Source: a virus (Duplodnaviria; Caudoviricetes). From it: a stretch of DNA of 45,450 nucleotides. The position numbers and the translations under genes are program-made. The stretch lies in the IMG/VR virus record IMGVR_UViG_3300035006_000010, positions 1 through 45,450 of that record; one strand, written 5' to 3'. The notes beneath the pieces are model-generated. The model did not search any database and was not told where the DNA came from. It saw only the letters and a program-made list of their open reading frames with translations. This document shows, piece after piece, positions 1 through 42,027 of this stretch. The first letter of the stretch is position 1. Every line of letters starts with the position of its first letter.

Positions 1-444
1 TCAACCCTCGCCGGGCGTATCCTCGATCGTCCACTGTCTCGGCCGATGCTCGGCGAAGAGCGCGATAATCCGCGCCACCTCCGCTTCCATGGCGCGAATC
101 GCCTCGCCGACCGGCGCGGCCGGCGGTCGATCGTCTGTCAGCTTGCCGCAGAGGTCCGCGTCGAGCAGGATGCCAGCGCAGGCGATGATCGAGGCGAGAT
201 GCGGCACGCCGGTGACCGGGTCGGCCGCCTCGCCGTTCCACCAGGACGCCAGGTGCCGGTCAAGCGCCGAGCGGTAGACCGAGGCGCGCACGCCGGCGAC
301 GCGCCAGTTGTAGGCGCCGTATTTCGCCGCGCCCTCGGCGAAGGCCAGCGCTGCGAAGACCCTGACCGTATCGGGAACCAGGTGAAGCGGCAGCTTCGAG
401 ATGGCCAGCGCGTCCTTCGGGTTCGTCGGCTTGGAATCGCTCAC
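1..444 (-). CDS. dATP/dGTP diphosphohydrolase domain protein (DUF5664-like)
   Basis: GTG start at 444 overlaps the upstream TGA (GTGA); motifs NPKD..K.PLHL.P, GAAKYGAYNWR, RH...WW.GE..DP.TG.PHLA. Confidence 0.8.
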   Translation of the reverse strand: MSDSKPTNPKDALAISKLPLHLVPDTVRVFAALAFAEGAAKYGAYNWRVAGVRASVYRSALDRHLASWWNGEAADPVTGVPHLASIIACAGILLDADLCGKLTDDRPPAAPVGEAIRAMEAEVARIIALFAEHRPRQWTIEDTPGEG

Positions 445-1808
445 GCCGCCCTCCTGATCGAGACCCAGTCCTCGCCGCCCTTGCCCTGCGGCTCCTCGAG
501 CTGGATTTCCCAGCGCGAGGTGATGCCGCGGCGCGGATGCACGAACCAGAGCGGCTGGCAGGGCGAGGCCGGCGGGGCGCGCAGGGCGTTCTTGGCGTAT
601 TCGTCCCAGCCCTTGAGCGTGCCCGAGACGATGACGCGCGGCAGCCAGAGCATCTGGTGCCAGTGGCCGATGACGAGCACGTCGTAATCGAGCCCGAGCC
701 CCGCCGCCTGCTTGCCGACCTTGGTCTCGCCGCGCGCGATCGGCCCGAGCGAGCCTATGATGCCGTCGCCGCCCTTCACGCCGAGCATGTCGCCATGCAT
801 CGCCAGATAGCGCTGGCCATAGACCCGGTAATGCACCTCGTTGGTGTCGGGAATGTCGAAGGTGATGCGGTCGTCGTCGGCGAAGTGGCGCTGCAGCAGC
901 TGATAGATCAGCCAGTCGAAATTCTTCCAGACATAGCGCTTGAACTCGGGCTTCTGCGTCGCCCGGCCGTGGTTCCCGGCGGCGCAGGGGCAATAGACCT
1001 GGCCGAAGGCGTCCGCCATCTGCCCGAGCGCCCAGATCATCAGATCGACGCAGCGCAGCACGGTCGGCAGCACCTCCTCGGCGTCCGTCTTGGCAAGCTC
1101 GGGATGCAGCCCGCCGCTGACGAAATCGCCGAGCAGGTTGACGACGATGCCGGGATACTGGCCCGGCCCATGCTCGCGGGCCAGCGAGACCGTGACCTCG
1201 ACGAGCCGGCGCACGCGCCGCTCGGCGATCCGCGGATCGAAGGCGTTGCGGCCGTTCGTCTCCGAGGACGAGACGACCTCGCCCATGTGCCAGTCCGACC
1301 AGACGGTGACGGGAACCTCCGGCGTCTTGGGCCCATGCGAAAGCGGCGCGAGGATCCATGCCGGAGGCGACGCCGGCGGCGTGGCGAGAGAGCCGATCAG
1401 TCCGCGCACAACATCGGCGTCGATCTCGGCGCGGTGCAGGTCGCGGAGCTGTTTGCGCAGTCGCACGACCTCGTCTTCGAGGCCGACGAGCTTGCGCCGC
1501 TCGGCGGGCTCGACCACTGCCGGCCCGGCGTTCCTGCGCTTCGGGGCGTCCGCAGGACGCGGCGCGGGTTCCGGCGGCGCGACGCCATTGGGCGCAAGCC
1601 CGTGCGACGCATGCGCCACCCGCAGCCGGTTGCGCAGCGCCGAGGACGAGATGCCCAGAGCCAGCGCCGCCTCCTTCAGGGCCGAGCGCCCTGCCCCGCC
1701 ATGGGCGAGCGGCCAGAGCGCGCCGGTCTCGACCGCGATCTCGACGGCCTCGACCGAGCGGCGCGCCTCATCCGCCGAGAGCGGCTGTTGCATGTTCGGC
1801 CGCGGCAT
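441..1808 (-). CDS. HTH + coiled coil + calcineurin-like metallophosphoesterase
   Basis: Motifs SDWH, GD, GNHG, HGD, GHWH; N-terminal HTH (LKEAALALGISSSALRNRL); TGATG overlap with upstream gene. Confidence 0.85.
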   Translation of the reverse strand: MPRPNMQQPLSADEARRSVEAVEIAVETGALWPLAHGGAGRSALKEAALALGISSSALRNRLRVAHASHGLAPNGVAPPEPAPRPADAPKRRNAGPAVVEPAERRKLVGLEDEVVRLRKQLRDLHRAEIDADVVRGLIGSLATPPASPPAWILAPLSHGPKTPEVPVTVWSDWHMGEVVSSSETNGRNAFDPRIAERRVRRLVEVTVSLAREHGPGQYPGIVVNLLGDFVSGGLHPELAKTDAEEVLPTVLRCVDLMIWALGQMADAFGQVYCPCAAGNHGRATQKPEFKRYVWKNFDWLIYQLLQRHFADDDRITFDIPDTNEVHYRVYGQRYLAMHGDMLGVKGGDGIIGSLGPIARGETKVGKQAAGLGLDYDVLVIGHWHQMLWLPRVIVSGTLKGWDEYAKNALRAPPASPCQPLWFVHPRRGITSRWEIQLEEPQGKGGEDWVSIRRAA

Positions 1809-2173
1809 CAGGCCGGGGCCCCGAGCACGGCGCTCTCCAGAGTCGCGGCGCTCTCCAGCTTCAGCGGCAGGATCAGGCAGACCTGCACGCCTTCGCCGAA
1901 CAGCACCAGCGCGGCGTCGGGGCCGACCAGCAGGATGACGAGATCGGGCGCGAGCGGCCGGGGCGGCTCGCCATGGGATTGCCGGAGGCTCGCCATGGCG
2001 CGGGCCGCGTCATCGTCGCGCCAGAGCAGCAGGCGGGCGCCGCCTTCCGCCATCGTCGTCGCCTCGGTCAGCACCGATTCGAGCGGGCGGCAGCCTTCCT
2101 GCGCGAACAGGGCCGATGGATTGAGCAGGATGGCGGCGAGCAGAAGCGCGCCGGCGCGAAGCACGGTCAACAT
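1808..2173 (-). CDS. Secreted hypothetical protein
   Basis: ATG 2173 with AAAGGA upstream; signal peptide MLTVLRAGALLLAAILLNPSALFA. Confidence 0.7.
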   Translation of the reverse strand: MLTVLRAGALLLAAILLNPSALFAQEGCRPLESVLTEATTMAEGGARLLLWRDDDAARAMASLRQSHGEPPRPLAPDLVILLVGPDAALVLFGEGVQVCLILPLKLESAATLESAVLGAPA

Positions 2174-2195: not shown

Positions 2196-2540
2196 TCAGG
2201 CTGCGGATTTCGGAGGGCGGCGGGGCGAGGGCTGCCCCTCGATGACGCGGTCGATGCGTTCGTTGAGATGGCTGACCTGGCCGCCGACGCCCTCGATCGC
2301 GCCGATGATGCGTTCCATCTGCTCGCGCAGGCCGACCTTGGAGACATAGGTCTCGGCGACATGCAGCTTGTGCTCGTGCAACACCGCCTGCAGCACCTCG
2401 GCGCGGGCGCCGGCGGCGGCGGCGGCCGTCATCGCCTCGGCTCGCGCCCGGTTGACGATCGTCTCGACCCGGACCCAGGCCGTGGTGACGAAACCGATCA
2501 CCAGGATCGCGAGGGAAACCAGTTCGGTCGTGACGGTCAT
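2196..2540 (-). CDS. Lysis-cassette membrane protein (N-terminal TM + coiled coil)
   Basis: ATG 2540 overlaps holin stop (ATGA); TM LVSLAILVIGFVTTAW then helical region. Confidence 0.7.
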   Translation of the reverse strand: MTVTTELVSLAILVIGFVTTAWVRVETIVNRARAEAMTAAAAAGARAEVLQAVLHEHKLHVAETYVSKVGLREQMERIIGAIEGVGGQVSHLNERIDRVIEGQPSPRRPPKSAA

Positions 2541-3100
2541 CGCACCCCCTTTCGGCCGAAGCCGATCAGCGGGGCGATCTCCTTCAGCGTGTGCCCGCCA
2601 TTGAAGACGGCGAGCCAGGTCAGCGTCACCGAGCCCCAGGCCGAGACCATCTCGGCGACGGACAGGAGAGGCCTGACGCCGGCATTGCCGCCAAACAGCG
2701 CCGTCAGCAGCAGCACGCTCCAGCCGGCGATGATCAGCCCCTGCCACGCGCCGCGCCAGAACTGCCACGCGCCAAAGCCTTTCTCGACCTCGGCCGCCTG
2801 CGCGGCCGCGCCGCGCTGCGCCTCGATCTCCCAGAGCCGGATCATCTCCGCCGCGCTCGCCTCGACGCGGGCGACGATCGCCGGGGCCGAGCCTTGCGTC
2901 TCGATCGCCTCCTTCACGGCCTCCGGCGTCGCCGGAGTGCCGAGATTGGCGGCCAGCCCCTCGATCGCCTTGCCGGCGAGGCCGCCGACCACGGCCCCGG
3001 CCGGGCCGCCGACGGCGGTTCCGATCATTGTGCCGAGCTGCGGCGCGCCGAGTTTGAAGAGCTGGCCCGCGAGCGAGCCGAGCGTGTTGGCGAGATCCAT
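2537..3100 (-). CDS. Putative holin (GTA 3TM-holin-like)
   Basis: Follows endolysin; GAP.LG...GGPAG Gly-rich N-terminus and two C-terminal hydrophobic segments; GGAGG SD. Confidence 0.65.
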   Translation of the reverse strand: MDLANTLGSLAGQLFKLGAPQLGTMIGTAVGGPAGAVVGGLAGKAIEGLAANLGTPATPEAVKEAIETQGSAPAIVARVEASAAEMIRLWEIEAQRGAAAQAAEVEKGFGAWQFWRGAWQGLIIAGWSVLLLTALFGGNAGVRPLLSVAEMVSAWGSVTLTWLAVFNGGHTLKEIAPLIGFGRKGVR

Positions 3101-3102
3101 GG

Positions 3103-3963
3103 TCAGCCTCCAAGGGCGCGGCGGAAGGCGGCGACGAGCCGCGCGAAGAAGCCCGGCGCCGCCGGGACGGGCTCAGGCTCAGGCGGCGGGGGGACGGCGA
3201 CGGGCGCGGCAGGAAGCGGTGCAGCCGGGGCCGGTGCGACCTTTTCGGGAGCAGGCGGAGAAGGCAGCGGCGGCGCGGCGGTCTCCGACGGCGGCGGCTG
3301 GACGGCCGCCACGCCCTTGCCGGGCCAGTCATTGGGCCAGTTCGCCCATTTGCCCTTCCGCAGGGCCGCGGCCTCGGCGCGCATCCGCGCGGCGTAGACG
3401 CCGTTCAGGCCGCCGCCATTGTAGACCTCCTCGACCGTGTCGAAGTCGGCGCGGGCCAGCGCCGGCCTGAGCCCGTTCTTGACGAGGAAATTGCTGAAGG
3501 CGTGAAGCTGGCGCACCTCGGAATCGGTGAAGGCGTCGAACATCGCCCGCGCCGAGGGGAAGCCGCAGGTCTCATGGTTGAAGCCCATGATCTGGAATTT
3601 GCCGATGCTGATCGCCTCGAAGGCGGCGTCGGCGTCGTAATCGATCATGCGCTGCAGCAGCGCGTAACGCGGGCCGGGGCCGTTGGTCATGCGCCTGTAG
3701 TGGCCGGACGCCCTGGTCGCGGCGTAGCTCTTGGTCGCAAGGCCAAGCCTGAGCGCCTGCGCCCGCCGGGAGACCGGCAGGGCCGAATGGAACTTGTGCG
3801 GCTCGGGCAGGATCTTGATCCGCCCGTCGGGAAACCAGCCGAAGCCGCCCGATTCGACCTCGGCGATGGCCTCCAGCGTGGCGGGGTGGCAGCCCAGCTT
3901 CGAGGCGAGCGCCGCCATGTCGTCATTGCCGATCGCCTGCGCGCGGCCCTGTCCCAGCATCAT
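3103..3963 (-). CDS. Endolysin, N-acetylmuramidase (DUF3380-like)
   Basis: A..EVES.G.G...G..KIL.E.H.F, S.G.FQIMGFN....G, YNG motifs; GGGAG SD. Confidence 0.9.
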   Translation of the reverse strand: MMLGQGRAQAIGNDDMAALASKLGCHPATLEAIAEVESGGFGWFPDGRIKILPEPHKFHSALPVSRRAQALRLGLATKSYAATRASGHYRRMTNGPGPRYALLQRMIDYDADAAFEAISIGKFQIMGFNHETCGFPSARAMFDAFTDSEVRQLHAFSNFLVKNGLRPALARADFDTVEEVYNGGGLNGVYAARMRAEAAALRKGKWANWPNDWPGKGVAAVQPPPSETAAPPLPSPPAPEKVAPAPAAPLPAAPVAVPPPPEPEPVPAAPGFFARLVAAFRRALGG

Positions 3964-3976
3964 GGCTGGCTCCCAT

Positions 3977-4000
3977 AAAAAAGCCGCCCGGAGGGGCGGC
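3977..4000 (-). terminator. Rho-independent terminator before the lysis cassette
   Basis: GCCGCCC-CTCC-GGGCGGC followed by T6 on the minus strand. Confidence 0.75.
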
Positions 4001-9130: not shown

Positions 9131-10237
9131 TCACTCGTCGTCGCCGCCGGCCTTGCCGGTCTCCAGGCTCTTGCCCGATTTCGAGCCCTTCCCCTTCTTG
9201 CCGCCGAAGGTGCGCGGATCGACCATGCTCAGCACGGCCTGCGTGCCCTCGGTGTCGGCCTGGCGCAGCGAGACCTTCTTGATCAGCATGTCCTGCGTGA
9301 TGCCGAGCGACGGGATTTCGACCGGCGCGAGCCAGCCGGGCGTCCAGATGACGTCACCTTCGTCGCGCCAGCCGGGAACCGTGATTTCGGCCGTGGTGCC
9401 CTCGCCCGAGGCGCGGTCGCGGTGCCATTTCGCGCGAGCGCGGGCGTCATTCTTCTTCACCGTCTCGGGCGGCACGATGATGCGCGTGCGGTTGCGGGTG
9501 ATGGTCTCGTCGGTCGCCTCATCCTCGATCTGCAATTCGTCGGGGCCGTAGCCGTCGGGCGCCTGCGCCCGGACCTTGACCTTGGAGAATTTCTTGCTGT
9601 CGTCGAACACGGCCGAGGCGTCAGCGACGTTGCGGCCCTCGGTGAAGCCGCTGGCATGGCGCTTCGTGCCCGCCTTCGTCAGCTTGAGGTTGCCCTCCGC
9701 CGTGTCGGAGATGGTGACGCCCTCGGCCCGCGCGACGCGCTCGCCGAAGGAGAAGATCGTCTCGCCCGGCCGCAGCCGCGCGATGTCGCGGGGCTTGAGG
9801 TCGATATCGCTCTCGACCTTGACCCCGACCTTCGCCGCCAGCGGCTCGAGTGCGTCCTTCGCCGTCTTGTCGCGGAACTCGCCGGTCTCGTGCTCGGCGC
9901 TGGAATCGACCGCGTCGCCGGTTTTGGACCGGCCCGCGATCGGCAGTTCGGCCTCGGCCGAGCGCAGGCTCGGGCTGCGCTTCTCGACATGGCCGGTCAG
10001 CAGCAGGTCGCCGCCCTGCGCATCGGGCTGGAAGGCCGCGCCATCGCTGGCGAGCGCATGGATGGTGCAGGCCGGCGAGTTCGCCAGCGCGTCGAGCAGT
10101 TGCGCCTGCGTCATGCCGGGCTGCTTGACCTTGGCCTCGAAGGAGCGCGCCGCCTCGTCCATGGCGATCTCGATCGCGATCGTGACCGGCCGAAGCACGA
10201 GGCCGCCGACCTTCAGCGTGACGATCTCGAATGCCAT
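9131..10237 (-). CDS. Mu gp44-like baseplate hub
   Basis: GRSKT.D.VDSS, PGET.F, GWRD..G..W.PG motifs. Confidence 0.9.
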   Translation of the reverse strand: MAFEIVTLKVGGLVLRPVTIAIEIAMDEAARSFEAKVKQPGMTQAQLLDALANSPACTIHALASDGAAFQPDAQGGDLLLTGHVEKRSPSLRSAEAELPIAGRSKTGDAVDSSAEHETGEFRDKTAKDALEPLAAKVGVKVESDIDLKPRDIARLRPGETIFSFGERVARAEGVTISDTAEGNLKLTKAGTKRHASGFTEGRNVADASAVFDDSKKFSKVKVRAQAPDGYGPDELQIEDEATDETITRNRTRIIVPPETVKKNDARARAKWHRDRASGEGTTAEITVPGWRDEGDVIWTPGWLAPVEIPSLGITQDMLIKKVSLRQADTEGTQAVLSMVDPRTFGGKKGKGSKSGKSLETGKAGGDDE

Positions 10238-28585: not shown

Positions 28586-30634
28586 CTATTCCGCCGCCTG
28601 CAGGAAGCTCGGCTGCGCAGCGGCGGGCGGAAGGCCGGCCCAGACCGGCAGCGGCGCGCGCCGGCGGCGCTTCACATCCGGCAGCGCCAGCGCATCGATC
28701 GCGTTGGCGCGCAGGACAGCCTGCGCCGCATGGGGGCAGACCGAATTGCCGATCTTGTGGCGCTGCGCCGTCTCGGTGAGCGTGCCGCCGGCCGGCAGCG
28801 GCGCGGCGAGGATGTAGGTATCCGGGAACCCCTGCGCACGCGCCAGTTCGCGCGGCGTCAGCATCCGCATGCCGATGTCCCAGACGATGAAGGCTCCCAC
28901 GGTGACGAACTCTCCCGGCCCGTCCCAGACGCCCTCGCTGCGCAGGAAGGCAGCCACCTGCCGAGCCCGGTCGATCCGCGCGTCGTCCAGTGGCGGCAGG
29001 TCGCACGCGCCCTCGACATGGCCGAAGCGGTCATGCGTCGTCACCGTGCGCGCCGGCTCGTCATGGCCGGCGCCTTCGCCCTGGCCGTAATAGGCGGTCA
29101 GGAACGGCGTCACCGCCGCATGGTGGTTGCCGTCGGCCAGCACGGTGCCGAGCGGCTCGTCCCGGTCGCCGCGCACGGTGTTGTTCTGCAGAGCCGAGAG
29201 ATAGGCCATCACCGGGGCCTGCGTGCAGCCCCTACCGACGATGGTCGAGACCGGCTCGCGCACGTCATGACCGACCATGTCGGTGTTGTGCTGCGCGAGG
29301 TACACCGCCGCGAGGTCGCCGCCATTGCCGGTCGGAACGACGACGGGCATCGGGCGCTCGACTTCGCGCGAACGCGGTTCCTGCCCCTCGCGCTCGCCAT
29401 AGCGCGGCACCAGAAAGCCTGAGACCGCCGCTAGCCCAGCCCCGCCGGCCGTGACGGTGTGCGCCGGCTCGTCGGCCGCCGTAAATGGTTTGCCGGAGTT
29501 GCGCATGGTCATCAGGTGCGGCGCGACGATCACCGTGTCGGGCTTGGTGCAGACGGTATGATAGGGCTTATCGACAGGCCGTTCGCCGCTCTGCCCCATG
29601 CGCCCGCCGACGCCGGCGAGATAGGGCGTCACGATCTGGTTCTGGTCCTTCGCCGAGGCGCAGACCGTGTGCAGCGGTGCATCGGCCGGGCGCGAGCGCC
29701 CGCCCTGCTGGGCATGGCTCACGAATGGCGTGACAAGCCCATGGGCGTCCCGCGCCGCCGCCACCGTCTTGAACGGCTCGCCCAGGCCCTGCCCCCGGAA
29801 TTCGTCGCCGCCATGGTTGCAGGTGACGATGAACGGGTCGGCCCGGTCGAGCACATAGCGCTTGAAGCCCCGCGCGATGCGCGACAGCGTCTTGGCCGCC
29901 AGCGGCCGCACCACCTGAATCCCCTGCGCCTTCGCCTGCGCCCGCGTCAGAAAGATCGAGGGGCACGGCAGATGCCAGTCGATGATCTGCGCCGCAGTGC
30001 GCCAGGGCAGCTTTCGCCCGCCCTTCACATCGTCGGAGGCCGGCGCGCCATGCGTCGGCGCAGGCCAGAGGATCGGCTTGCCGTCGCGGCGGGCGACCAG
30101 GAAGAGGCGCTTGCGGATCGTCGGCGCGCCATAGTCGCAGGCCCGCAGCTCGCGCCATTCGACGCTGTAGCCCAGCGCCTCGAGCCTTCGCACCCAGCGC
30201 GCGAATTCCGAACCTTTCCGATGCGGGCAGGGCTTGCCGTCCTCCGCCAGCGGCCCCCATTGCCGCCACTCCTCGACATTTTCGAGGAAGATCATCTGCG
30301 GCGAAACGGTCTCTGCCCAGAGCAGCACGACATCGGCCAGCCCCCGCACAGACCGGGAGACCGGCGCGCCGCCCTTGGCCTTGGAGTGGTGCCGGCAGTC
30401 CGGCGAGGCCCAGAGCAGCGCCACGGGTTTGCCAGCGGTCGCCGCGACGGGATCGACCTTCCAGACATTCTCGCGCAGATGCACGGTGCCCGGATGGTTG
30501 GCCGCATGCATGGCGAGCGCCGCCTCGTCATGGTTGATGGCGATGTCGGGCGAGCGCCCGAGCGCCCATTCGATGCCCGTGCTCGCCCCGCCGCCGCCGG
30601 CGAAGGAATCGACGATCAAGCCCTGCAACATCAC
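28586..30634 (-). CDS. DNA (cytosine-5)-methyltransferase, orphan
   Basis: FAGGGG, SPDC, ENV, R.R, RML..REL..AQGFP, GNSV motifs. Confidence 0.95.
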   Translation of the reverse strand: MMLQGLIVDSFAGGGGASTGIEWALGRSPDIAINHDEAALAMHAANHPGTVHLRENVWKVDPVAATAGKPVALLWASPDCRHHSKAKGGAPVSRSVRGLADVVLLWAETVSPQMIFLENVEEWRQWGPLAEDGKPCPHRKGSEFARWVRRLEALGYSVEWRELRACDYGAPTIRKRLFLVARRDGKPILWPAPTHGAPASDDVKGGRKLPWRTAAQIIDWHLPCPSIFLTRAQAKAQGIQVVRPLAAKTLSRIARGFKRYVLDRADPFIVTCNHGGDEFRGQGLGEPFKTVAAARDAHGLVTPFVSHAQQGGRSRPADAPLHTVCASAKDQNQIVTPYLAGVGGRMGQSGERPVDKPYHTVCTKPDTVIVAPHLMTMRNSGKPFTAADEPAHTVTAGGAGLAAVSGFLVPRYGEREGQEPRSREVERPMPVVVPTGNGGDLAAVYLAQHNTDMVGHDVREPVSTIVGRGCTQAPVMAYLSALQNNTVRGDRDEPLGTVLADGNHHAAVTPFLTAYYGQGEGAGHDEPARTVTTHDRFGHVEGACDLPPLDDARIDRARQVAAFLRSEGVWDGPGEFVTVGAFIVWDIGMRMLTPRELARAQGFPDTYILAAPLPAGGTLTETAQRHKIGNSVCPHAAQAVLRANAIDALALPDVKRRRRAPLPVWAGLPPAAAQPSFLQAAE

Positions 30635-32599: not shown

Positions 32600-34075
32600 T
32601 CAACCCGAGCGGCCCGATGGTCCGTCCTGATCGGCGAAGTGGCCGTAGATCTGTCTGCCCCCCCCCCGGACGGACTCGTCGCCGCCGAAGAGCGGCCCAT
32701 GGTCGGCCGCCTTGCCGGCCGCCTTCGCCTTGGCGCGCTCCGCCTTGCGGATTGCCGGGCCCTCGACGGCCAGCGCCAGGCGCCGGGCGATGTCGGCCTG
32801 ATAGGCCGGCTCGCGCTCCACCAGCACGGCGAAAAAACCCTCGCGCCAGGCGGCTTCGCCGGTCGAGCCCGAGCCGGCGAAAGGGTCGATCACGGTTCCG
32901 CCCGGCGGCGTCACCATCCGGCAGAGCCAGGCCATCAGGTCGACCGGCTTGACCGTCGGATGCTTCGAGCCGATCCGGTCCTCGGCATCGGCTTTTGCGC
33001 TGTAGAAAAAGCGGGCGGCCGAGCCCGCGTCGCCATAGAAGGCAGGCTCGACGCCTTCGGGCAGCCCATTGAACTGACCGCGAGCGACGCTGTTGTTGCT
33101 GTTACGCAGGGATGGACCCGAGGCTTTGCCCGAGCCGCCGGCCGCGCATGGAAACGCCGCGACAACCTCGTCGCTGCCGTCATGGACGATGTTGGCCGGC
33201 CAGCGGCCACCCTCATGCGCCCTGATAACCTTGTCTTGCCCTTCAGAGGCAAAGCGGCCGATCGCCGCCGATGGCGGCGAGCAGACAAAGACCCGGCCAT
33301 CGATGGCCGCAGCATCGACCGCTGACATGCCGATCCGGCAACCGTCGATGTTCAACGCGCCCGTGCCGTGTTGAACGACGGTCTCCGCCACGGTCCCGGC
33401 CAGCGGCTTGCGCGCCAGCACGATCGGCTCCCATGCGGGTTTGAGCGCCGTGCCCCAGCCCTGCCATTGCGCCGCTTCGGCGGACACCGCTTCGGCGGAC
33501 ACCGCTTCGTGGTAGCCCCGCTCCTGGGCGGCGAGGATGAAGGGCCGCGTATCCTGCCGCGCCTTCGCGTTGCCGACGGCGGCGGCCGCTATGCGAACCT
33601 TGGTCCGCTCGTGGCCGAGATGCTTGTCGATCCCCTTCGCCACGTCGTGGCTCTTCGGAAAGCCCGAGCCATAAACCCAGGCGAGCTGGTCGCGGATTTC
33701 GAAGCCGGCATCCTCGATCGCGCAGGCCAGCCGGTGATAGGAGCGCGTGCCGCCGAAGGCGACGACATGGCCGCCCGGCTTGAGCACGCGCCATACTTGC
33801 GCCCAGAACTCGACCGAGAACGCCGTCTCGCCGGTGTCCCAGGCCTGCCCCATGAAGCCTGCCGAGGCCCGCGCATAGGCGCCCGAGCCGCCCTCGGGCA
33901 CGGTGACGCCGGCAGCCCCGGCCTTGCCGAAACGCTTTCCGATCGAGACCAGCGCATAGGGCGGATCAGTCACGACACTGTCGATCGAGGCGTCCGCCAG
34001 CCCGGCCAGCACGACGCGGCAATCGCCGGGATGCAGCACCACACGCCCGCCGAGGAAGGATTGCGCCGCGCTCAC
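32600..34075 (-). CDS. DNA N6-adenine/N4-cytosine methyltransferase (beta class), orphan
   Basis: TDPPY, RVLKPGG, HPTVKP, DPFAGSGSTG in beta order. Confidence 0.95.
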   Translation of the reverse strand: MSAAQSFLGGRVVLHPGDCRVVLAGLADASIDSVVTDPPYALVSIGKRFGKAGAAGVTVPEGGSGAYARASAGFMGQAWDTGETAFSVEFWAQVWRVLKPGGHVVAFGGTRSYHRLACAIEDAGFEIRDQLAWVYGSGFPKSHDVAKGIDKHLGHERTKVRIAAAAVGNAKARQDTRPFILAAQERGYHEAVSAEAVSAEAAQWQGWGTALKPAWEPIVLARKPLAGTVAETVVQHGTGALNIDGCRIGMSAVDAAAIDGRVFVCSPPSAAIGRFASEGQDKVIRAHEGGRWPANIVHDGSDEVVAAFPCAAGGSGKASGPSLRNSNNSVARGQFNGLPEGVEPAFYGDAGSAARFFYSAKADAEDRIGSKHPTVKPVDLMAWLCRMVTPPGGTVIDPFAGSGSTGEAAWREGFFAVLVEREPAYQADIARRLALAVEGPAIRKAERAKAKAAGKAADHGPLFGGDESVRGGGRQIYGHFADQDGPSGRSG

Positions 34076-38033: not shown

Positions 38034-38287
38034 TGCAGATCACACCCATCGTCGCAGCCGGCGAGCCCGCCCCGCACGAACTCCATGCGCTGGCGGGTGA
38101 AGCCTTCGAGCGCGCCAACAACCTCGCGCTCGACGCGATCATCCTGCAGGGCCGCGTCGCCTCGACCAGTCGCCGCCCGCTGGCGACCCTGGCCAGCGAT
38201 CTCGCGGCCGAAGCCACCGCCTTCGCGGCGCTGACCGTCAAACTGGCCGAGCGCATCGCCGCGCTCGAAGCGAGGGCAGCGGCATGA
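38033..38287 (+). CDS. Hypothetical helical protein
   Basis: GGGAG SD; overlaps both neighbours. Confidence 0.65.
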   Translation: MQITPIVAAGEPAPHELHALAGEAFERANNLALDAIILQGRVASTSRRPLATLASDLAAEATAFAALTVKLAERIAALEARAAA

Positions 38288-39024
38288 CCTGGCTCCAGAC
38301 CGCCTCCGGCCGCGCCTTCGATCTGATCGCACCCGATTGGCGGCAGGTCGATTTCGATGTCGACGTGGCCGAGGCGCTGGCGCGCATCGCCCGCTTCACC
38401 GGCCATGTCCGCGCCGGGCCCTATTCGGTGGCGCAGCACTGCGTCGTCGGGGCCGACGCCGTCTTTCGCGAGACGAAGGACAGGAAGGCGGCGGCCGCCT
38501 TCCTGCTGCACGACGCGCACGAGGCCTATCTCGGCGACATCGCCACGCCGATCGTCTGGGCGCTGGCAGCACGTGCGCGGCTCATCGCCGACCGGACGAA
38601 CAACCTGATCCATGCCGACGCAGCACTCTTTGGCGACGAACTGGTGAAGTCCGCCATCGCCTCGCTCAAGGCCGGGCTCGATCAAGCAATCTATCGCGCT
38701 GCCGGGGTCACGGCGGGAGGCCCACCCTCGGTCTTTCACGACATCGTCAAGCGCATGGACTTGGCGATGCTCGCCACCGAGGCGCGGCATCTGCTCGGCC
38801 CAGCGCCGCAGCCCTGGGCGATCCTCGAGGGCGTCGAGCCCATCCGCATGGTCGGCCGGCTCACCGTCTGGCCCTGGCCGCAGGCGGCGGACGAATACCG
38901 CGAACGCTTGCGCCGCTACCTGCCCGAGCGCTTCGCGCCGGCCACGCCCAGCCCGAAATCAGGCCCCCGCCACGACGGCGCGCGGCTGATCCGCCACCCC
39001 AAACCCGAACTGACGGAGGCCTGA
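38284..39024 (+). CDS. HD-domain phosphohydrolase (YfdR-like 5'-deoxynucleotidase family)
   Basis: RF.GH, YSVAQH, LLHDAHEAY.GDI..P, D...LATE motifs. Confidence 0.88.
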   Translation: MTWLQTASGRAFDLIAPDWRQVDFDVDVAEALARIARFTGHVRAGPYSVAQHCVVGADAVFRETKDRKAAAAFLLHDAHEAYLGDIATPIVWALAARARLIADRTNNLIHADAALFGDELVKSAIASLKAGLDQAIYRAAGVTAGGPPSVFHDIVKRMDLAMLATEARHLLGPAPQPWAILEGVEPIRMVGRLTVWPWPQAADEYRERLRRYLPERFAPATPSPKSGPRHDGARLIRHPKPELTEA

Positions 39025-39028
39025 GCCT

Positions 39029-39376
39029 ATGTCCAACCGCCCGATCCGACGCTTCGCCGACATGCTGGGTCTGCTTAGCCGCGGCAGGTTCGTCGAAAAA
39101 TGCGACGAGCACCTGTCCAACGCCGTGCAAACGCTCGAGGCCCTGCCCGGCGAGAAGGGCGAGGCCACCATCACAGTCACGGTCAAGGTCGTCTTCGAGA
39201 GCGGGCGGCTCGATATCCGCCCGACCGTCAAGTCGAAGCTGCCCGAGGAAAAGGGCTTCAGCGGCACGCCGTTCTGGGCGGTCGATGGCGCGCTCTCGGT
39301 CCAGCACCCGAGCCAGACCGACATGTTCGTCCGCGACACCGCCGAGGACCGCGAGCGCGGCTTCGCCTCGGCCTGA
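39029..39376 (+). CDS. YfdP-like partner of DUF2303 protein
   Basis: 115 aa gene before DUF2303; K.KLP, FW..DG.LS..HP.Q..MF. Confidence 0.65.
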   Translation: MSNRPIRRFADMLGLLSRGRFVEKCDEHLSNAVQTLEALPGEKGEATITVTVKVVFESGRLDIRPTVKSKLPEEKGFSGTPFWAVDGALSVQHPSQTDMFVRDTAEDRERGFASA

Positions 39377-39406
39377 TCCAAAACCCTCACCTGAAAGGCA
39401 CCCGAC

Positions 39407-40405
39407 ATGACAACCGCCACCGAAACGCCGCAGGCCCCTCACGCATTCGAGCCCTTCATCGGCGAGGCGCTGAGCCAGCCGCAGGCCTTCAGCCTGATCC
39501 CCGATTCCGGCGAGGGCGTCGGCGCGATCGTCGAGCTTGCCCGCCAGACGTCGCAGGTGAAGATCGGCGATCTCGCCACGGACGGTCTCGGCTTCGGCCT
39601 GCCCGCGACCATTCCGCTGCTGATCGACCAGCGCCCCGGCGGAGCAATCCGCACGCTGAAAAGCGAGATCGAGGCCTACCGTCGCTGGCCGGAGCGGCGG
39701 GAGGGCACGGCGAGCGCCACGACGCTGCAGAGCTTCATCGACCTCGTGAACCGCCACAAGGACGAGGACACGGTCGTCTTCGCCAAGACGGCCTGGCCGG
39801 AGCCGGCGCTGACGGCTGTTATCGACTACCACGAGACCGACGGCACGGCCCGCTGGGGCAAGCACCGCATCCGCTATGCCTTCCCCGTCACCGACGAGTT
39901 CAAGGTCTGGATCGATAAGAACGGCAAGGCGATGGAGCAGGCCGAGTTTGCGGCATTCCTCGAGGATCACGCCGCCGAACTCTCGGCAGCCTACGGGCCG
40001 GAAGCCGCCGAATACGAGACGCTCTTCAAGGAGAAGTTCGCGACCCCGGCCGACCTGATCGCGCTGTCGCGCAGCCTCGAGATCCATGTCGGGGCCAAGG
40101 TCAAGCGCGCCGAGCGCATCCAGACCGGCGAGCGCACGGTCGAGTTCGTCGAGGAGCACCTCAACGGCAAAGGCGATCGCGTCGATATCCCCGGCATCTT
40201 CATGGTCTCGGTTCCGGCATTCGTCGACGGGGAGCAGGTCCGCATCCCGGCCCGCCTGCGCTACCGCATCGCGAACGGGTCGATCCACTGGTTCTATCAG
40301 CTTTATCGCTGGCAGTTCTGGCTGCGCGACCAGGTCAAAAACGACCTCATCACCGTCGCCGACAAGACCGAACTCCCGACCTTCGAAGGCTCCCCCGAGG
40401 CTTAG
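39407..40405 (+). CDS. DUF2303 (YfdQ-like) protein
   Basis: G......L.SFI..V, AVIDYH, W..HR, Q.EFA.FLED, ARLRYR motifs. Confidence 0.88.
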   Translation: MTTATETPQAPHAFEPFIGEALSQPQAFSLIPDSGEGVGAIVELARQTSQVKIGDLATDGLGFGLPATIPLLIDQRPGGAIRTLKSEIEAYRRWPERREGTASATTLQSFIDLVNRHKDEDTVVFAKTAWPEPALTAVIDYHETDGTARWGKHRIRYAFPVTDEFKVWIDKNGKAMEQAEFAAFLEDHAAELSAAYGPEAAEYETLFKEKFATPADLIALSRSLEIHVGAKVKRAERIQTGERTVEFVEEHLNGKGDRVDIPGIFMVSVPAFVDGEQVRIPARLRYRIANGSIHWFYQLYRWQFWLRDQVKNDLITVADKTELPTFEGSPEA

Positions 40406-40471: not shown

Positions 40472-40918
40472 ATGGCCACGAAACAGGACATCGACGCCGC
40501 AATGGCCGCGATCGACAGGGCGTTGAGGCCCAGCATCTTCGAGCGCTCGCGCCTCCTGATCTGCAAAATTCTTGGCGCACCGCCGCCGAGCGAGATGATT
40601 GCCGAATTCCGGCGCGATATTTCCACGCTCGCGCATGGGCTGCAGCTCGATGGCGATATCGCGGGCGGCGAAGCGCGAGGGGCATTGGAGAACCTCGCTC
40701 ATCGCGCCGGCCTCTATGTGTCCGACGATCACGACGACGACGAGTGGGACGATGGCGAAGGCTATGTGCAGTTCGACCTCGCCCAGCTCGACGAAGCCCA
40801 GCGCCGCGCACGCTACGGCCAGATCGACGACGCCCTTCACCACCTCGAGCGCGCCCTCCCCGAGGGTTACGGCGACATCGCCGAGCGGCTCGCCCATGCT
40901 TTCAGGAGCGCCCGATGA
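40472..40918 (+). CDS. Hypothetical protein with acidic tract
   Basis: Stop overlaps dnaN start (ATGA); weak SD, start uncertain. Confidence 0.6.
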   Translation: MATKQDIDAAMAAIDRALRPSIFERSRLLICKILGAPPPSEMIAEFRRDISTLAHGLQLDGDIAGGEARGALENLAHRAGLYVSDDHDDDEWDDGEGYVQFDLAQLDEAQRRARYGQIDDALHHLERALPEGYGDIAERLAHAFRSAR

Positions 40919-42027
40919 AACTCACCCTCGACCGTTCGGCCCTGCTCAAGGCGCTGGAGCCCGTGCAGCGCATCATCGAGCGCCGCAACACCATCCCGAT
41001 CCTCGGCAACGTGCTGCTGCGCGCCGACGCCGCCGGGCTGGTGTTGACCGGCACCGATCTCGACATCGAATTGCGCACCTCGACGCCGGCCGAGGTCGAG
41101 ACGCCTGGCGCGCTCACCCTGCCGGCCGGCACCTTCTATGACATCGTCCGCAAGCTGCCCGAGGGCAGCCAGGTCGCGATCGAGCAGGCCGCTGCCGGCG
41201 AGCGCGCCACGGTGCGGGCCGGGCGCTCGCGCTTCCAGGTGGCGAGCCTGCCGGAATCGGACTTCCCCGACATTACGGCGGGCGAACCCTCGCACCGCTT
41301 CGCGCTGACGGCCAAGGCCCTGCTCGGGCTGATCGAGGCCACCCAGTTCGCGATCTCGACCGAGGAGACGCGATACTATCTCAACGGCGTCCACATCCAT
41401 GACGCAGGCGAAGGCCAGATGGCCGCCGTTGCCACCGATGGGCACCGGCTCGCCCGCATCCATCTGCCCTTGCCCGAAGGCGCGGCCGGCATGCCCGCCA
41501 TCATCGTCCCGCGCAAGCCGATCGCCGAGATCGGCCGGCTCGTGGCCAAAGGCGGCGACGCCATGGTCGAGATCGAGCTTTCGGCCACGAAGATCCGGCT
41601 GATCGTCGACGGCGCCCGCCTCACCTCGAAGCTGATCGACGGAACCTTCCCCGATTACCAGCGCGTCATCCCGTCCGGGAACGACAAGCGCGCCACCATC
41701 GACACGGACGCACTGGCCCGCGCGGTCGATCGCGTCGCCACCATCTCCAGCGAGCGCGGCCGCGCCGTGAAGCTCTCGCTCGCGGACGGCGCGATGGCTC
41801 TGTCGGTGACGAACCCCGACGCCGGCGAGGCCCGCGAGGAAATCGACATCGACTATGACGGCCCGCCCATCGAGATCGGCTTCAACGCCCGCTACCTGCA
41901 GGACACGCTCGCCGTACTCGGCGGCGACACCGTCCTGATGAAACTCGCCGACCCGGGCTCCCCGACCATCCTGATGTCGCGGGACGGGGCGGCCCTGCTC
42001 ACCGTGCTGATGCCGATGAGGGTTTAG
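40915..42027 (+). CDS. dnaN: DNA polymerase III beta sliding clamp (phage copy)
   Basis: RNTIPIL.NV, ETRYYLNG, VATDGHRLA, DGTFPDY.RVIP, GFN..YL, VLMPMRV; AGGAG SD. Confidence 0.96.
   Translation: MKLTLDRSALLKALEPVQRIIERRNTIPILGNVLLRADAAGLVLTGTDLDIELRTSTPAEVETPGALTLPAGTFYDIVRKLPEGSQVAIEQAAAGERATVRAGRSRFQVASLPESDFPDITAGEPSHRFALTAKALLGLIEATQFAISTEETRYYLNGVHIHDAGEGQMAAVATDGHRLARIHLPLPEGAAGMPAIIVPRKPIAEIGRLVAKGGDAMVEIELSATKIRLIVDGARLTSKLIDGTFPDYQRVIPSGNDKRATIDTDALARAVDRVATISSERGRAVKLSLADGAMALSVTNPDAGEAREEIDIDYDGPPIEIGFNARYLQDTLAVLGGDTVLMKLADPGSPTILMSRDGAALLTVLMPMRV

Follow-up and report, generated by a model that had tools for sequence, protein, structure and literature searches.

The window analysed here is an entire virus record of 45,450 bases, which ends at base 1; a public contig continues for another 8,483 bases past base 1, outside the analysed record. 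The record is classed as a provirus with a CheckV completeness of 99%, and it encodes head and contractile-tail proteins, a primase, methyltransferases, a repressor and an integrase. Bosea names are attached to its close relatives. Two DNA methyltransferase genes lie at 28586-30634 and 32600-34075 on the minus strand, and a processivity-factor-like gene (phrog_947) at 40744-42027 on the plus strand. The left end is occupied by a row of minus-strand genes, given here in the direction of reading:

3983-4000, minus strand: terminator-like hairpin before the endolysin gene (consensus match only; chance mean 1.5)
2196-3963, minus strand: the lysis genes (muramidase, holin-like and 114-aa membrane protein), upstream in the same gene row
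3103-3963, minus strand: N-acetylmuramidase, the endolysin (PF11860, 1.5e-33)
2537-3100, minus strand: holin-like protein, after a 2-nt gap from the muramidase gene
2196-2540, minus strand: 114-aa membrane protein, with an ATGA overlap with the holin-like gene
1808-2173, minus strand: 121-aa protein with an N-terminal hydrophobic, signal-like stretch, after a 22-nt gap from the 114-aa membrane protein gene
441-1808, minus strand: 455-aa phosphoesterase (phrog_284), with a TGATG overlap with the signal-peptide-like gene
441-444, minus strand: GTGA stop/start overlap of the phosphoesterase and DUF5664 genes, close to the swap point of relatives
1-444, minus strand: 147-aa stand-alone DUF5664 protein (PF18909), the occupant of a swappable slot

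By the same consensus match (chance mean 1.5), no such hairpin was detected from the lysis genes down to base 1. As predicted, the phosphoesterase and DUF5664 genes and their TGATG and GTGA overlaps are real, lie at the end of the lysis operon and are all on the minus strand. The description of the row as chained by overlaps holds for these two junctions, and also for the ATGA junction, but the two remaining junctions are short gaps. The 121-aa signal-peptide-like gene had been counted as part of the module; only 2 of 34 loci have such a gene, so it is not a conserved part of it. In a Bosea prophage (L001), a short tandem repeat of approximately 24 bases starts soon after the DUF5664 gene (approximately 9920-10040).

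The phosphoesterase retains all five calcineurin-like motifs (D172/H174, D228, N279/H280, H338 and H382/H384), in the metal-binding pattern DxH, GD, GNH, H and GHxH, and these were invariant across 37 aligned relatives, in an alignment that numbers the motif residues 5 lower than the 455-aa protein. The AF2 model (pLDDT 81.9) comprised an HTH-like pair of helices (38-46 and 50-64), a long helix of 41 residues (96-136) and a catalytic domain with the two-sheet alpha/beta phosphoesterase fold, which was also evident from the fold matches. The motif residues and the modelled helices agree with the predicted arrangement of intact motifs behind an HTH and a coiled coil. The HMM search proposed as a check was positive for PF18909, with 84.3 bits on the DUF5664 gene against a curated cut-off of 27, and negative for PF00149; neither this nor the rest of Pfam matched the window phosphoesterase, which was recovered with phrog_284 (6.7e-39). 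The phrog_284-type family is large (approximately 2,100 IMG/VR stretches). Most relatives in GenBank bore the label "hypothetical", and some were annotated as "exonuclease" or "DNA polymerase II small subunit". The look-alikes in the ESM Atlas were assigned to Metallophos (13-53% of members) or YonJ_CC (19%), NCBIfam gave only weak HTH-type matches in a few relatives, and sequence searches of the PDB returned no relative of either the phosphoesterase or the DUF5664 protein.

When the phosphoesterase model was searched with Foldseek, Mre11 ranked first by E-value and PolD DP1 was highest by query TM-score. On re-alignment, PolD DP1 (PDB 8PPT, 5IHE) was the top match (Z 16.6, rmsd 3.4, 239 residues aligned), followed by Mre11 (Z 14.5), SbcD (14.2), Vps29 (13.5) and LpxH (13.4); the lead of DP1 over Mre11 and over the non-nucleases Vps29 and LpxH amounts to 2-3 Z units, and fold alone shows no function. 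DP1 is described in the available text of PMC4996933 as an archaeal 3'-5' exonuclease subunit, and its seven metal ligands and catalytic His all have counterparts in the phage protein. The two differ in that identity is only approximately 15%, the phage protein has an N-terminal HTH and coiled coil, and the phage model appears to leave no room for the OB insertion of DP1. No DP2 polymerase partner was present among the 66 scanned ORFs of this 99%-complete record. Among control genomes, the phrog_284 profile gave matches in B. subtilis, L. lactis and three euryarchaea but none in Sulfolobus or E. coli, a pattern that would fit DP1 together with prophage YonJ-type genes. As the best fold matches, PolD DP1 and then Mre11, are DNA exonucleases, DNA exonuclease is the likeliest activity of the phosphoesterase, ahead of the hydrolysis of small nucleotides or immune signals that had been proposed.

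The phage proteins labelled "DNA polymerase II small subunit", such as those resembling YonJ of SPbeta, belong to the same phrog_284 family as the window protein, for which no functional study was found in the literature searched. Two mycobacteriophage proteins, Bxb1 gp47 (PMC11795197) and A10ZJ24 Gp48 (PMC12287305), are described in the available text of those papers as calcineurin-like enzymes with an Mre11/DP1-like fold and nuclease activity. The likeness drawn here between them and the window protein is by description. Both are early or replication-region genes, and, unlike in the window cassette, no nucleotide-enzyme partner is described for them in the same text. The small phosphoesterase D29 gp66 was also considered as a relative and was rejected, since its hhalign probability against the window family (2.5%) was not significant.

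The conserved motifs of DUF5664 are present in the gene at 1-444, and the model of its product is all-helical (pLDDT 94.5). Like gp51 of Arthrobacter phage Wayne, this product consists of a PF18909 domain alone; it is 40% identical to the Wayne protein over 75 aa, and the conserved motifs are kept. In the main text of PMC12884076, the stand-alone Wayne protein is reported to hydrolyse dATP, dUTP and dGTP to the dNMP in vitro, with a kcat of 0.48/s for dATP, and the family is also found in ordinary-DNA phages. The predicted dATP/dGTP diphosphohydrolase is supported to the extent that the Wayne member is a dATP/dUTP/dGTP pyrophosphohydrolase in vitro, an activity shown for that protein only. The words kinase, dADP, dNDP and diphosphate do not occur in that main text; transfer to a dNMP is therefore not reported there. 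Wayne is a Z-genome phage in which DUF5664 adjoins PurZ, whereas the window has no PurZ and its DUF5664 gene follows the phosphoesterase gene after the lysis genes. The PHROG and RefSeq label of the window DUF5664 subfamily, "endolysin; inhibits RNA polymerase" (phrog_2252), looks to be a mis-annotation and was rejected because both Pfam and the Wayne alignment identify DUF5664. Fusions of DUF5664 were observed to a protein annotated as 5' nucleotidase in Sinorhizobium phage phiM5 (L217:2387-3439) and to the NDT-like DUF4406 at another locus (L032:4263-5231).

The gene neighbourhood was surveyed in 119 fetched loci plus the window, from which 7 same-contig repeats were removed, leaving 113 loci that formed 92 clusters at 90% identity; partner genes were named by Pfam and counted with local HMMs. 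DUF5664 was encoded on the same strand within 2.5 kb of the phosphoesterase in 33 of the 92 clusters. These were all 33 of the clusters with a DUF5664 gene anywhere in the fetched DNA, compared with 5.7 expected if the gene were randomly placed, so that the two genes co-occur far beyond chance, as the proposed gene-neighbourhood check had anticipated. By the same measure, a dNMP kinase gene was near the phosphoesterase in 16 of 16 kinase-bearing clusters (3.1 expected), an NDT-like gene in 10 of 12, DUF6378 in 4 of 5, and a cupin-like family without a name in 8 of 8. Some partner was present in 57 of the 92 clusters. An NDT-like gene accompanied DUF5664 at 13 of the 113 loci. Among 401 bacterial genomes drawn separately, 8 had the phosphoesterase, with a partner within 1.5 kb in 7 of these (one locus had already been counted). 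Counting against a coupled cassette, 47 of the 113 phosphoesterase loci had no such partner nearby. The association was also looser from the DUF5664 side: a phrog_284 match was found in 20 of 50 records, approximately 10 of these within 1.5 kb on the same strand (coordinates read by eye), and most close DUF5664 relatives lacked an adjacent phosphoesterase. In phage Optimus, DUF5664 lies beside two MazG genes.

The cupin-like family (approximately 175 aa; cupin-like by eye, although none of the five members scanned matched Pfam) lies between the phosphoesterase and DUF5664 genes in PolA-bearing phages (L023, L024, L026, L027, L031, L066, L078 and L096). A second, distant subfamily of phage phosphoesterases also adjoins a DUF5664 gene of the window type (L144-L147, L158, L160, L166, L205 and L126).

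The gene behind the phosphoesterase varies and may encode DUF5664, a P-loop dNMP kinase, DUF6378, DUF3310 (the domain of the T7 gp1.7 kinase) or an NDT-like protein. Three pairs of loci with phosphoesterases more than 90% identical differed in this gene: kinase in L004 and DUF5664 in L037, kinase in L012 and DUF6378 in L013, and kinase in L039 and DUF6378 in L038. Between L004 and L037, the last aligned stretch of the phosphoesterase gene was identical bar a few bases, and the partner genes had their first 25 or so codons in common before continuing as kinase or DUF5664. Conversely, at L126 a 78% identical DUF5664 protein follows a phosphoesterase of the other subfamily (no significant BLAST match), again at the end of a lysis row. 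In a quick tree, partner types were interleaved across clades. The original prediction had described a fixed nucleotide-destroying system. This description was not upheld, since the position is often taken by a dNMP kinase, an enzyme that builds nucleotides.

The slot families were then counted in 50 whole records from phosphoesterase loci, which were picked mainly for length and several of which were fragments; the first pass of the search misses some genes. DUF5664 was found in 27 records (29 with the local HMM), dNMP kinase in 8, DUF6378 in 7 and DUF3310 in 1, and exactly one of these four families was present in 45 of the 50 records (43 without the local-HMM additions). None of the 50 records had two of the four families, compared with approximately 9 expected by permutation, and this was reached in 0 of 200,000 permutations; the records are related to one another, and the comparison is made inside the chosen records and not against random phages. 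With the 13 records nearest to the window set aside, the exclusion still held (Fisher p 6e-4). In 50 of the 80 records fetched by a DUF5664 query, dNMP kinase, DUF6378 and DUF3310 were found in 0, 0 and 0, respectively, with profiles that did match in the first set of 50 records. Unrelated families that exclude each other one-for-one are commonly taken to do the same job, and the slot pattern looks like gene displacement.

T7 gp1.7, which GenBank labels a nucleotide kinase, carries DUF3310 (3e-25). According to the available text of PMC11897194 it is a dTMP/dGMP kinase. This family and the T4/T5-type dNMP kinases (PF21448) likewise fill the slot behind the phosphoesterase, and neither was found with DUF5664 in the records searched. 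The DUF5664 protein has no detectable sequence or profile kinship with either: the gene at 1-444 and the rest of the record lack the P-loop kinase domain PF21448, PF11753 (DUF3310) had no match in the record, and the hhalign probability between DUF5664 and DUF3310 was below 1%, with a 6-row profile only. Profile kinship among DUF5664, DUF6378 and DUF3310 was likewise not detected, in a weak test with small profiles, and nothing in the ESM Atlas pointed to a function for DUF6378. Among cultured phages, the T7-like RsoP1EGY has DUF5664 and neither kinase family, and both kinase families are absent from all four DUF5664-bearing phages searched (RsoP1EGY, Wayne, Optimus and phiM5).

The explanation that we favour, tentatively and a little short of calling it probable, is that the row is a two-gene late cassette for recycling or balancing deoxynucleotides, consisting of a predicted DP1-like exonuclease and a dNMP-kinase-like slot gene. 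Late in infection the nuclease would release dNMPs from host DNA or from spare phage DNA, and the slot gene would return them to the triphosphate pool. As the four families exclude each other one-for-one, and two of them are dNMP kinase families, the pattern suggests that DUF5664, as a putative kinase, takes the place of a dNMP kinase in this nuclease-plus-salvage cassette. DUF5664 would pass a phosphate from a dNTP to a dNMP whenever a dNMP is present, and the published hydrolysis would be the same reaction without an acceptor. Host immunity may be what drives the swapping itself. Kongming responds to phage dNMP kinases (bioRxiv 10.1101/2024.12.20.629578, available text) and Avs5 to T7 gp1.7 (PMC11897194, available text), so that both known kinase types trigger defences and there would be a reason to swap the slot gene. 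Several results count against the recycling explanation, namely the hydrolysis by the Wayne protein in vitro, the catabolic neighbours of DUF5664 (NDT-like, 5' nucleotidase and MazG), the lack of detectable kinship between DUF5664 and gp1.7, the loose coupling from the DUF5664 side, and the absence of both kinase families, the only two searched, from three cultured phosphoesterase-bearing phages. A bolder form, which is possible but doubtful, would add DUF5664 and DUF6378 to the two kinase families as a third and a fourth, so far unrecognised, phage counterpart of a dNMP kinase, so that four unrelated enzymes are cycled through one slot behind a DP1-like nuclease to keep salvaging DNA while dodging kinase-sensing defences such as Kongming and Avs5. 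If this were true, the DUF5664 protein beside PurZ in Z-phages would serve to phosphorylate dZMP, spending dATP to do so.

The phosphoesterase and DUF5664 row is real and common and is not a fixed destructive system, and both genes belong to common phage families. The new part is the displacement pattern, that is, the kinase swap and the four-family exclusion. No paper that treats DUF5664 as a kinase stand-in, or that describes the cassette, the swap or the exclusion, was found in the literature searched, in which subscription journals were thinly covered. The two families are widespread among phages, with no role assigned to them in ordinary-DNA phages, and the exclusion pattern offers a cheap and sharp test of the roles of DUF5664 and the uncharacterised DUF6378. 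Should these be kinase stand-ins, they would represent new nucleotide-kinase folds, the label "dATP/dGTP diphosphohydrolase" would need revision, and the swapping would be explained as escape from kinase-sensing immunity. If they are not, the row would be an ordinary accessory nuclease with a pool-trimming hydrolase.

The alternative nearest to the original prediction is a catabolic cassette, which we consider unlikely, albeit with some evidence in its favour. Here DUF5664 would be a genuine pyrophosphohydrolase of dNTPs, trimming or sanitising the pool (dATP, dGTP and dUTP), and would act with the nuclease and an NDT or nucleotidase in late nucleotide breakdown, and the kinase-bearing relatives would follow the opposite strategy. 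A hydrolase and a kinase could exclude each other simply since together they waste energy in a futile cycle. This is consistent with the activity of the Wayne protein in vitro (PMC12884076, main text) and with the NDT, 5' nucleotidase and MazG neighbours or fusions of DUF5664. However, near-identical prophages carry either a kinase or DUF5664 beyond one and the same junction, which would be odd for opposite strategies, and kinase, DUF6378 and DUF3310 likewise never co-occur with one another. NDT-like genes also accompany the kinase (L058) and DUF6378 (L008).

It is less likely still that the slot merely collects cargo. The phosphoesterase would then have a job of its own, such as DNA-end processing in packaging or replication (compare Bxb1 gp47, in replication), and small nucleotide genes would gather at the operon end without cooperating with it. 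The position of the phosphoesterase gene directly before the terminase large subunit gene in several loci (Pfam-confirmed in L007 and L020), and near PolA in others, fits this explanation, as do the 47 partnerless loci and the many close DUF5664 relatives without an adjacent phosphoesterase. Against it, the arrangement at L126 places a closely related DUF5664 gene behind a phosphoesterase of the other subfamily in the same end-of-lysis position, and several DUF5664 and phosphoesterase subfamilies pair up. By eye, the phosphoesterase gene lies directly or closely before the terminase large subunit gene in L025, L057, L084, L099, L106 and L112 as well, in these eight loci often after a conserved gene of approximately 180 aa that may encode the small subunit.

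Counter-defence appears improbable. The phosphoesterase would silence defences by destroying nucleotide immune signals or host DNA, and its partner would remove signal precursors, by analogy with mycobacteriophage Gp48, which degrades DNA and counters defence (PMC12287305, available text), and with T5 Dmp, which blocks Kongming by removing dAMP (bioRxiv 10.1101/2024.12.20.629578, available text). Gp48 is expressed early according to the same available text, whereas the window gene lies in an end-of-lysis row; among the fold matches, DNA nucleases rank above cyclic-nucleotide enzymes, and the likeness of D29 gp66 to the window family was negligible, as given above.

A base-substitution pathway (Z-DNA or 7-deazaguanine), of which the pair would be a part or a remnant, is extremely improbable and was rejected: DUF5664 adjoins PurZ in Wayne, and a public contig continues 8.5 kb to the left of base 1, beyond the DNA searched, but PurZ and QueC are essentially absent from the relatives of this 99%-complete record. 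PurA/PurZ was found in 1 of 50 phosphoesterase records (G037, 599 bits), at a provirus end and likely to be a host purA, and in 0 of 50 further related records; QueC was found in 0 of 50 records, with the window record included. The pair is independent of PurZ and Que. The prediction that the window has no PurZ, Que/Dpd gene or replicative polymerase also agreed with the searches, as neither PurZ nor a replicative polymerase was found among its 66 scanned ORFs, QueC was absent from the record and no DpdA PHROG matched the window ORFs.

The HD hydrolase gene at 38284 had been suggested to act in the same pathway. This gene (phrog_318) forms a conserved early-region trio with phrog_204 and DUF2303 (38284-40405, plus strand), distant from the cassette. 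As all 5 of the 5 close relatives have it, DUF5664-bearing and kinase-bearing alike, the suggested link to the cassette is unsupported. The trio resembles the yfdRPQ genes of E. coli prophages.
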